Source: Octopus sinensis (Eukaryota). Taken from it: a DNA stretch of 11,578 nucleotides. The translations under genes and the position numbers were made by a program. The stretch lies in contig NW_021827056.1 in assembly GCF_006345805.1 (NCBI RefSeq), positions 1 through 11,578 of the forward strand, given 5' to 3'. Numbering within the stretch: the first letter of the stretch is position 1; each line of letters opens with the position of its first letter. A model generated the notes under the pieces. It worked only from the letters and a program-made list of their open reading frames with translations. It did not search any database and had not been told where the DNA came from. Of the stretch, positions 5,281 through 11,114 are shown one piece after another.

Positions 5281-5444
5281 CGTGTATCTCTAATGTAGCT
5301 GTCACTTCAATTCTTCATGCTAACAGATAGTAAAAACGGTAAAGCGAAAATGTCATTCATGTCTAATAGAAAAAGTAGTCCTTTGCAGATATTTTTTGAA
5401 TTGCTACTAATGATGTTTCGCTTACGAGAAGTAAGCGAAACTCA

Positions 5445-6100
5445 CCAACTGTTATACTAAATCGAGTTGATGATTTTCTATATTTGGCCAGCTGGATAAG
5501 TTCATCAAAAAACGACATTGACATTACGATTACCAAAGCCTGGGCTGCTGCAATGAACAAACTGGAAAAGATATGGAAGTCAGATCCATACAGAAAGATC
5601 AAAATATCATTCTTCAGAACATCTGTTGAGTCTGTTGTTATATGGATCACGTACATTGGCCCTGACGACACAAACATTTGAGAAGAAACTAGATGGTGCA
5701 TACACTAAAGTGCTTAGCGTTCTACAAAGCACGACTTGGCGTCAACAAATAAAAGTTTATACGGAAACTTACTCAAGATAAGAAATACATTTGTTCAAAG
5801 ACGATTAAGATTTGCAGGACATTGCAGGAGAAAGAAGCAGGAAGTTACAGAAGCTATTATTGTAGGAACCAACTCACGGAAAACGCAGTAAAGGAAGACT
5901 TTCTCAAACATTAACTGGCAGACGATACGTATTAACTGGCAGACGATACGTATTAACTGGCAGACGATACGTATTAACTGGCAGACGATACAAAGCTCAG
6001 TAATGGGCAGCTATCACGAGCAATAGAAACTCGTGAATTGTGGAGAGAGACTTCGTGAGGAATGTTCGACTGTGGTCACAATGACGATTACTGCTGATGT
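5445..6100 (+). pseudogene. Decayed 3' end of an RTE-clade LINE ORF2 (end of RT and C-terminal domain)
   Basis: VDDFLYLASWISSSKNDIDITITKAW..MNKLEKIWKS..KIKISFFRTSVESV from 5466 (FxYLGS-like), EKKLDGAYTK (5680-5709), RRLRFAGHC (5799-5825) and KLLL*EPTHGKRSKGR (5851-5898). Frameshifts and an in-frame stop are present. Confidence 0.88.
5910..5991 (+). repeat. Perfect 21-bp minisatellite, 3.9 copies, inside the RTE fragment
   Basis: ATTAACTGGCAGACGATACGT at 5910, 5931 and 5952, plus a 19-bp partial copy at 5973, with no mismatches. Confidence 0.97.
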
Positions 6101-9793: not shown

Positions 9794-9983
9794 GTTTCAT
9801 ACCAAGACTTGAGATAACACCAGCAATCATCAGAAAAAGCTGAAAGAAAAAGCATGGCGTGGATTCTTTGCCACCGGACGTCTGAAACGGTCACATCGGG
9901 TTGTGGAAAAGAACCCACGCTATACATTTCCTTTTATTTATATCTGATGATTGCTAGGATTATCTCAATTTCCGGTATGAAAC
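9794..9983. repeat. Imperfect long inverted repeat (foldback), 81-bp arms with a 28-bp spacer
   Basis: 9794-9874 matches the reverse complement of 9903-9983 without gaps at 63/81 (hand count). No target-site duplication was seen. Confidence 0.9.
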
Positions 9984-10010: not shown

Positions 10011-10219
10011 CAGGGTGTTCGTAAATTATCTTTACAACTTTCACAATTTAGTGCCTTTGTTAAAGTTGGGATCCCCCAATCAACTTCCTTGCAACCAATG
10101 GAGCCCACGTAAATGTGTTTCTGTTTGCCTATGTTTTCCAATAAACCCTGCAGAGTTATTCTTATTTTTCAGTGTTTTCTGAATTTTTCGAATAGTAAAG
10201 ATAATTTATGGACACCTTG
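10011..10219. mobile_element. Tc1/mariner-type MITE, 209 bp, TA target duplication
   Basis: TIRs CAGGGTGTTCGTAAATTATCTTTAC (10011-10035) and GTAAAGATAATTTATGGACACCTTG (10195-10219) are 22/25 complementary, flanked by TA at 10009-10010 and 10220-10221. No transposase ORF. Confidence 0.9.
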
Positions 10220-10249
10220 TATATTACTGCATTTTATTAATAATAAAAC

Positions 10250-10691
10250 CCGACAGGAGACGTCGATGTTTCCTAGGGCTAAATGGCGGTGGTGTAATTC
10301 CCTTACGGGACTGTCACATTGAGTTGACAGTATACGACCACTTTATCGCCCCACCACTGATATGTCTCTCTGAGACATTTAGAAATTCAATATTTCTAAT
10401 TTCGGTGATCAGTAAATAAATTTTACTGAAAATATGATATATTTGCGAAGAGGTTGCGGTCATCTCAGCGAGCGAGACTGGCTACCTTGAACTGACGACG
10501 AGCAATACACTCAGAAACATGTCTTCAGGTGCTTAGTCCCAGCTGGCGGGGGTGATTGCCTCCCCTTTGCAAATATAAGGACACAGAAAATGTGTCAAAG
10601 CCGACAGGAGACGTCGATGTTTCCTAGGGCTAAATGGCGGTGGTGTAATTCCCTTACGGGACTATCACATGGAGTTGACAGTATACGACCA

Positions 10692-10742
<51 letters not shown>

Positions 10743-10745
10743 ATA
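10250..10745 (+). mobile_element. Retrozyme-like non-autonomous retroelement: 351-bp unit x1.26, (TA)n tail, 14-bp TSD
   Basis: 93-bp direct repeats at 10250-10342 and 10601-10693 (91/93 identical, period 351). Internal hammerhead at 10486-10529, (TA)n at 10694-10745, and identical ATTAATAATAAAAC at 10236-10249 and 10746-10759. Confidence 0.8.
10486..10529 (+). ncRNA. Minimal type I hammerhead ribozyme
   Basis: Stem I CTTGAA(10486-10491)/TTCAGG(10524-10529), extendable with bulges to 10476/10538. Canonical core CTGACGA (10492-10498); stem II GAG-CAATACA-CTC (10500-10512) closed by a C/A mismatch; GAAA (10514-10517); palindromic ACATGT (10517-10522); cleavage triplet GUC with the site after 10523. 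Confidence 0.8.
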
Positions 10746-11114
10746 ATTAATAATAAAACATATGCTTATACATACATATATGTACGTACCTACCTCTACA
10801 TGTATATATACATGCATATATGGGTACAGGACACCAAAAACCGTCGAACACAATGAGAAACGAAAACATAAACACAAAACCAAGGAACTGGACATTTTTC
10901 TTAAACACCGAAAAAATAGAGTACAGGACATACAAAACAAGGAAAATTCCCCTTCTTCAGTCGCCATGGTTTCATCTACTCTGCGTTTCGAAGGTGAAGG
11001 CGATATGCATCTTCGATAGAAACTTTCCTTCCCGCGAAAAGCAAAATAAAATTTGAGATCTTTTTGTGGCGGGGCAAAAATGGTAACAAAAACAGGACAG
11101 TAACGACAGTACAA

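Follow-up and report, generated by a model that had tools for sequence, protein, structure and literature searches.

A dispersed non-coding hammerhead family in octopus, probably inserted by Penelope-like enzymes, and ORF1-like cassettes in its relatives

The 11,578-nt stretch of Octopus sinensis DNA analysed here, hereafter the window (assembly GCF_006345805.1, contig NW_021827056.1), contains near one end a segment that repeats its own first 93 nucleotides, carries a hammerhead ribozyme motif and is bracketed by an exact 14-bp duplication. What is this segment, which enzyme put it there, and from what kind of RNA was it copied? Retrozymes of this size are described in passages on mussel, coral and axolotl (Cervera and de la Pena 2020, PMC7229834), and a recent preprint argues, in the parts that bear on this point, that retrozymes derive from Penelope-like elements (PLEs) and are non-autonomous (Li, Clavereau, Pollet 2026, bioRxiv 10.64898/2026.07.22.740005). 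We find that the segment is a 1.26-unit copy of a dispersed non-coding hammerhead family, very probably inserted in trans by a Penelope-like reverse transcriptase-endonuclease. The anatomy of the family and the covarying fold of its hammerhead are direct observations, from which we infer the steps of insertion.

Anatomy of the window copy

The copy consists of one complete unit followed by a partial second pass (Table 1). The repeat, duplication and hammerhead given in an earlier note on this DNA are confirmed. A 93-nt direct repeat recurs with a period of 351 (10250–10342 against 10601–10693, 91/93 identical, the mismatches falling at unit positions 64 and 71), the 14-bp duplication, ATTAATAATAAAAC, starts at 10236 and 10746 and occurs nowhere else in the window, and one type I hammerhead lies at 10485–10529, with a predicted cut after 10523 and a fold that covaries across families. 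The note's view that the region lacks coding capacity also holds, the five ATG open reading frames of at least 30 aa over it all being short or entering a microsatellite. No tRNA was found over the element region. The unit differs from the column majority of its family at 13 of 347 columns and folds better than shuffled versions of itself, both as a linear molecule (z −7.05) and as a circle (z −9.4); the minus strand also folds well (z −6.04). Because it has a single hammerhead and no site B downstream of that hammerhead, the window copy is probably a dead end, a product rather than a source of further copies, as had been proposed, and in itself it is likely an ordinary dead insertion.

Table 1. 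Features of the retrozyme-like copy and its borders in the window.
Feature	Position	Strand	Basis or remark
Left copy of 14-bp duplication	10236–10249	+	Exact match to 10746–10759; likely target-site duplication
One complete 351-nt unit	10250–10600	+	5′ edge is a random truncation point
Site A, internal copy	10342–10346	+	First fixed end of the family; putative start site of reverse transcription
Two hairpins up to site B (10400–10402)	10362–10402	+	Folding; site B is the second fixed end
A-to-B stretch in the window unit	between sites A and B		PLE-type 'tail'
Long predicted hairpin, hammerhead at its tip	10439–10576	+	Folding
Cassette position of relatives	10476–10494	+	Stretch duplicated around an ORF1-like cassette there; empty in the window copy
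Type I hammerhead	10485–10529	+	Sequence and covariation, 17 copies of four families; cleavage predicted
Hammerhead stem I	10485–10491/10524–10529	+	
Hammerhead core CUGACGA	10492–10498	+	
C·A mismatch	10499/10513	+	
Hammerhead stem II	10500–10502/10510–10512	+	
Hammerhead GAAA	10514–10517	+	
Hammerhead stem III		+	Palindromic
Predicted cut	10523/10524	+	
Second, partial pass (unit 1–93)	10601–10693	+	91/93 identical; ends at site A
(TA)n tract	10694–10745		Sequence; between the retrozyme-like element and the neighbouring repeat
Right copy of 14-bp duplication	10746–10759	+	Doubles as terminus of the neighbouring repeat

The right-hand 14-mer is at the same time the end of another high-copy repeat (10746–11114, minus strand; about 95% identity, 3,849 candidates), whose terminus is normally one A longer and usually abuts (TA)n. 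The terminus shortened by 1 nt, together with the bases that follow it, is found at a single place in the genome, and the same deletion is present in the left copy, so that the duplication arose at this locus. In other copies of the neighbouring repeat the motif is single, which provides a paralogous empty site; a search of the same assembly for an empty allele of the window insertion gave no match, an absence that proves nothing. The 10 nt before the right 14-mer resemble the longer terminus of the neighbouring repeat, which argues against a plain duplication. On balance we consider a true target-site duplication the probable origin of the 14-mers, templated filler rather unlikely and chance very unlikely. 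The (TA)n tail of the earlier note is present as a TA-rich tract; it is not obligatory in the family and may partly belong to the neighbouring repeat, since the terminus of that repeat usually abuts such tracts.

Several other repeats were seen in passing. Repeats of the 10746–11114 type (L328–L334; L numbers denote loci) have a fixed end at (TA)n, partial tandems with a period of roughly 750 bp and inverted pieces, and look like a second non-autonomous PLE-type family, of which the window holds a truncated copy; at L334 an older retrozyme stands tail-to-tail with a repeat of this type. In the window, a likely MITE of the Tc1/mariner type, about 210 bp long and present at high depth, occupies positions 10011–10219; its terminal inverted repeats are imperfect, and TA flanks it on each side. 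Positions 9794–9983 hold an inverted repeat with 81-nt arms, 78% complementary and 28 nt apart, probably another MITE-like element. Frames at 5363–5704 resemble a C-terminal fragment of a LINE reverse transcriptase, and at 5910–5991 a 21-bp sequence is repeated exactly, in tandem, 3.9 times.

A dispersed family with two fixed ends

A search of the 2.7-Gb genome with the unit gave 2,406 first-look candidates; among the 40 scored were full-length matches at 89–95% identity. Of two exact 34-nt patterns, the one taken from the hammerhead matched 73 times and the one from the stretch leading up to the first fixed end 108 times, controls giving no match, and the share of independent segments matching the second pattern exactly (19/67) corresponds to roughly 380 segments as a lower bound. 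The reading of the element as retrozyme-like and multi-copy is thus borne out by a dispersed family of a few hundred copies, which fall into mosaic subfamilies. Of four contig sets compared, the three guessed to be RNA had the same profile as the fourth, a large run of unspecified kind, and so do not speak for or against transcription or circles. The depth of reads over the start-site region suggests that older relatives number in the thousands, and no fewer than three additional retrozyme families with a hammerhead, their units measuring about 350 nt, were noticed (L183, L187, L189, L199, L204 and others).

We analysed the ends of 141 loci drawn from three selections (best BLAST hits, hammerhead pattern and end pattern) after dropping 16 duplicates and one hitless locus, a set that is biased to long, young copies and is not a census. 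Direct arms end at site A in 69 loci, at site B in 55 and elsewhere in 17, which places 124/141 at fixed sites. Site A corresponds to unit positions 91–101 (mode 97, counting a TATAT common to the target) and site B to 149–158, the two lying about 55 nt apart. The 5′ ends, by contrast with these fixed sites, are variable and scattered across the whole unit. The earlier note had expected varied permutation start points; instead, reverse transcription appears to start at two fixed sites and the variation is that of 5′ truncation only. Among the 141 loci, no accumulation of 5′ ends was seen where the ribozyme cuts, nor at the cassette position; the truncation points nearest the cut (after 277) are four at 269–272, inside the palindrome, and one at 283.

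Scarless direct arms longer than one unit are common (60/141), the longest measuring 601 nt, and none reaches two units, a count that possible collapse of arrays in the assembly may affect. Of the tandem or partial-tandem arrays that the earlier note proposed to look for, partial tandems are present and two full units are not (0/141), and two complete tandem hammerheads occur in just two loci (L014, L016). Duplications of at least 8 bp flank 32/141 loci, compared with 4.3 for shuffled pairs and at most 12 there; 7 of the 32 are microsatellite-like and the other 25 measure 8–15 bp, which agrees with the expectation that copies would have duplications of their own. The remaining 109 loci have no scored duplication, and many ends lie inside TA tracts. 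Flanks are AT-rich, and (TA)4 or longer follows 45/124 fixed ends, leaving 79/124 without a tail.

These ends bear on whether the element is a TRIM or a small LTR element with 93-bp terminal repeats. The window copy, taken alone, does look like repeat-interior-repeat with 2% divergence; across the 141 loci, however, 5′ ends are scattered over the whole unit and the overlap length varies, so that fixed terminal repeats at both ends are not found, and the duplications measure 8–15 bp rather than 4–6 bp. In agreement with the earlier note, we regard this reading as practically excluded.

An inverted arm is present in 52/141 copies. Where both ends of such a copy fall at A or B, 35/37 have one of each, with one A+A and one B+B (p 5e-9), and six further very short inverted arms are all one-A-one-B. 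This pairing largely refutes a SINE-like element moved from its 3′ end by an ordinary LINE, with (TA)n as its tail. L1 also yields fixed 3′ ends, 5′ truncation, duplications and inversions, and the tails after 45/124 ends would suit it. In L1 twin priming, the inverted and direct arms are not known to overlap in sequence. Here they do overlap, the ends lie inside the repeating unit at two positions, one per strand, most ends have no tail and there is no tRNA head, so that a LINE-moved SINE is very improbable.

The hammerhead ribozyme

The window hammerhead has the core CUGANGA/GAAA/UH, three stems and an open stem I, as in type I ribozymes. Conservation of the motif among copies, anticipated in the earlier note, is seen as a covarying fold across four related families: in 17 aligned copies, 8/12 named pairs change on both sides, the covariation sitting in stems I and II, and 87.7% of cells are paired against at most 46% in slid controls; relatedness inflates the shuffle test. 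Core columns are invariant in 17/17, in part by selection, the copies having been chosen by the core pattern. Stem III is a palindrome in each of the four families (ACATATGT, ACATGCATGT, ACTAGT and ACTGCAGT), a feature said in part of PMC4209133 to favour dimers. Three related hammerhead families turned up beside the cassettes described below. Other hammerhead-like motifs, of different sequence, lie near PLE loci (L156:84 and 6019; L161:6054; L163:1143, minus strand).

Activity of the ribozyme is not assured, because an Rfam scan at E up to 10 returned no hammerhead and no other relevant family, and because the base of stem II is unpaired in 15/17 aligned copies. Position 10.1–11.1, paired in the standard type I fold, is C·A in the window copy; over 143 hammerhead matches, C·A occurs in 92 and U-A in 45. 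A U·U mismatch at this position is known in active ribozymes from passages of PMC3088659 and PMC7229834, and C·A is absent from those passages. Folds of the hammerhead by itself were no better than shuffles (z 0.1 to −1.5). Loop III reads ACATGT in 4/143 matches, the window copy among them, and ACATATGT in 110/143; being 2 nt shorter there than most copies, with the shortest loop III, the window copy could probably hardly form stem III alone. We predict that the ribozyme is weak as a monomer and cuts as a dimer.

The RNA template

Diagnostic subfamily variants give a view of the RNA that was copied. Inverted and direct arms of one insertion were discordant in 6/118 comparisons (null 0.375, background about 0.05), so both arms came from the same RNA or RNA type. 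Same-strand passes within a copy were discordant in 16/86 (null 0.44; background 0.058, about 5 expected; p 3e-5, or p 0.01 with L016 and L020 counted once each), a comparison that leaves out L007 and L085, judged to be later duplications, and in which a few pairs are separate pieces in one locus. The partial tandems of L016 and L020 are clear hetero-tandems, with passes from different subfamilies. At L020 the switch of subfamily falls inside a 27-nt interval that contains the ribozyme cut site; a recombination hot spot at that site received no support from the linkage test. Linkage does not drop across the cut site (r2 0.51–0.54), and this, together with the lack of 5′ ends there, indicates that the template was continuous at the cut site.

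Might the template be a monomer circle of 351–353 nt, made by hammerhead cleavage and ligation and copied by an enzyme that overruns its start point? Such a circle would suit the 60 scarless arms beyond one unit, the sharing of subfamily variants by within-copy repeats (discordance 0.15–0.19 against a null of 0.37–0.44), the linkage and the lack of truncation points at the cut site, and the strong circular fold (z −9.4); circles of 220–390 nt are shown for coral, mussel and axolotl retrozymes in passages of PMC7229834. Copying one circle twice, however, would leave about 5 discordant tandem comparisons rather than 16/86, and would not join different subfamilies as in L016 and L020; nor do arms (at most 601 nt) ever reach two units, and two complete tandem hammerheads are confined to 2/141 loci. 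In the published passages on other systems, the anole PLE works on unprocessed RNA (PMC11167929) and Xenopus retrozyme dimers were cleaved in vitro in 1/9 (bioRxiv 10.64898/2026.07.22.740005). As the main route, the monomer circle is a sub-case of the Penelope explanation, and our estimate for it, a narrow range rather than a single value, falls somewhat short of even. The template may have been an uncut or multimeric transcript, an exact end-to-end jump or a circle, and the data do not single out the circle.

The mobilising enzyme

According to passages of PMC8557442, the PLE signature comprises partial tandems, 5′ copies in inverted orientation and a tail that is often confined to one end; in those of PMC11167929 an anole PLE protein in vitro initiates at two sites inside the RNA, cleaves DNA that is AT-rich and extends both strands. 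The octopus family has what is expected of a non-autonomous EN+ PLE, namely partial tandems, variable 5′ truncation with a fixed 3′ end, an inverted 5′ copy and, optionally, a tail at one end. For the window copy, the earlier note had suggested that a LINE or Penelope enzyme was borrowed for target-primed insertion; a borrowed enzyme still fits, and the evidence favours Penelope over LINE.

In the mechanism that we propose for this Penelope-type insertion, the GIY-YIG endonuclease would make a staggered cut in AT-rich DNA, here of 14 bp and within the end of another repeat, and the enzyme would begin copying inside the RNA, at site A or site B. Both cut DNA ends could prime, one per site, on the same or an identical RNA. 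For the window copy, priming would have taken place at A and copying would have run backwards for 444 nt, leaving no scar where it crossed the ribozyme cut site, and the template read through in this way may have been an uncut or multimeric transcript, two RNAs joined by an end-to-end jump, or a circle.

Intact reverse transcriptase plus GIY-YIG open reading frames of 775–781 aa are present in the octopus genome. An autonomous GIY-YIG element sharing the ends of the family was not found (150 of 5,029 candidates scored, 45 loci examined), nor was a partner in a second PLE group (150 of 10,993 candidates scored, 30 loci examined), the 75 PLE loci examined being a small part of those candidates. 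Retrozyme copies beside PLEs in L152, L162, L170 and L297 look like neighbouring insertions. A young Penelope-like family (L156–L160, L162, L163) has members 98–99% identical, with an intact 781-aa reverse transcriptase plus GIY-YIG frame and an upstream 479-aa frame; no canonical hammerhead was found near the ends of these frames.

ORF1-like cassettes in relatives

In three loci of the family the unit stops at position 245 and gives way to 1.6 kb of other sequence, which contains a zinc-knuckle gene of ORF1-like type as well as a polyadenylation signal. At L177 the unit resumes at 231 after this cassette and ends at site A with (TA)n; the sequence past 245, which we had considered as a full LINE, is thus an ORF1-only cassette followed by the rest of the unit. 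Among the best 30 of 130 candidate loci for the cassette 5′ end, found with a query taken from a composite, a retrozyme lies directly upstream in 23, a cassette plus linker in 4 and other DNA in 3. A junction pattern from a sister family gave 29 matches, with a hammerhead core immediately after in 24 and a protein match to the cassette in 21/29 (31–100% identity).

Cassettes can be stacked. L243 and L244 each hold three different cassettes, with short carrier-derived linkers between them, inside one split unit; among hammerhead elements with arrays (L243:3404–8871, L244:1659–5743, L292, L295), two to three diverged ORF1-like cassettes occur per element; all of these cassettes have a polyadenylation motif in common at their end, and behind it comes the same short linker of 10–25 nt. 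No reverse transcriptase was found inside the cassettes (0/17 extended loci), which therefore resemble HAL1 in having a single ORF1-like gene and no reverse transcriptase. The cassette protein has 519 relatives at E up to 0.001; of the 16 scanned, 7 have a zinc knuckle and none a reverse transcriptase. Its Pfam match to zf-CCHC (E 0.004) is below the cut-off, and its atlas neighbours, CCHC and ZCCHC3-like proteins, serve as a lead only; we take ZCCHC3 to be L1/Tx1 kin. The only near-length homologue of the protein carried by relatives is labelled Octopus bimaculoides. A single-sequence structure model of the cassette protein reached pLDDT 34 and was unusable.

Might the 351-nt unit be the solo pseudo-LTR of a longer non-autonomous PLE with an ORF1-like cassette as its body, the short copies being truncation products? 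Unit-cassette-unit composites with PLE-type ends do exist (L180, L185, L194, L208). Yet short copies, that of the window included, run seamlessly through the cassette site, the same cassette occurs in four carrier families and one carrier takes different cassettes, and the window family has one exact cassette junction against 73 exact hammerhead matches; we consider this reading improbable.

L201, where a cassette stands by itself with a duplication and a short leader of carrier sequence, shows independent mobility. Two models of cassette acquisition both match the data. In one, the Penelope enzyme, at the 5′ end of the carrier RNA, would jump onto a cassette RNA transcribed from the same promoter, landing at its 3′ end; in the other, HAL1-like elements would insert repeatedly at the cassette site with target duplication. 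More speculatively, and with doubt as to its correctness, the whole may be an RNA-based cassette system, in which a dimeric Penelope enzyme, priming one strand per fixed RNA site, would move a 350-nt module made up of ribozyme and promoter; the module would repeatedly take up ORF1-like genes at a single position beside its hammerhead and build them into integron-like arrays, which would move together and pass between carrier families.

Discussion

As described in the passages on metazoan non-LTR retrozymes, such elements share with the octopus family a non-coding unit of about 350 nt with GC below 50%, a type I hammerhead with a short palindromic stem III, a self-paired fold, duplications longer than 4 bp and PLEs in the same genome, and the family likewise has a multi-copy unit within 150–450 nt and no LTR pair. 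Unlike them it forms no dimers or multimers (0/141 loci reach two units), so that it would be missed by the two-hammerhead definition given in the 2026 preprint, and its two fixed start sites and cassette carriage are absent from the accounts of metazoan retrozymes in those parts of PMC7229834 and 10.64898/2026.07.22.740005. Because none of the 141 loci has two or more complete units and the element is known here from genomic DNA alone, we call it retrozyme-like and do not file it as a proven circular-RNA retrozyme.

With EN+ PLEs, as portrayed in passages on Poseidon of Anolis (PMC11167929) and on Naiad, Neptune, Hydra and non-autonomous Chlamys such as MRC1 (PMC8557442), the family shares partial tandems, an inverted 5′-truncated arm, an optional tail bounded by two start sites inside the RNA, targets that are AT-rich or (TA)n, and a hammerhead upstream of the start sites. 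It differs from them in having no open reading frame, a tail of about 55–58 nt against the published 30–40, a hammerhead of canonical size, containing a C·A mismatch, instead of the minimal PLE type described in part of PMC4209133, and no sequence link to an autonomous element among the 75 PLE loci.

ORF1-only HAL1 (half-L1) elements are known (passages of PMC5753468), as is the movement of captured genes by PLE terminal repeats in Terminons (passages of PMC6431247). The octopus cassettes are like HAL1 in encoding an ORF1-like zinc-knuckle protein only and ending at a polyadenylation signal; unlike HAL1 or Terminons as presented there, they are diverged paralogues at one position just upstream of a hammerhead, in several carrier families, stacked with linkers. 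Literature searches on octopus with hammerhead or Penelope, and on hammerhead with ORF1 or Tx1, gave no description of the family or of cassette arrays, most subscription papers, Repbase and Dfam lying outside their scope, and the main text of a 2026 Octopus vulgaris repeat annotation (PMC13282606) makes no mention of ribozyme, hammerhead or retrozyme. The distinguishing features of the octopus family are the one-site-per-strand rule and the cassette arrays, rather than the window copy.

Hammerhead elements of this kind escape searches that require two tandem units. The family is a natural record of how Penelope elements form partial tandems, inversions and tails and of how animal retrozymes integrate, with one start site per DNA strand in 35/37 scorable inverted copies and a single type of RNA behind both arms. 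Being 350 nt long and having known start sites, the RNA would be an easy test substrate for the intact octopus PLE proteins, and the cassette arrays, if built by the same machinery, would represent ordered gene-stacking in an animal retroelement.
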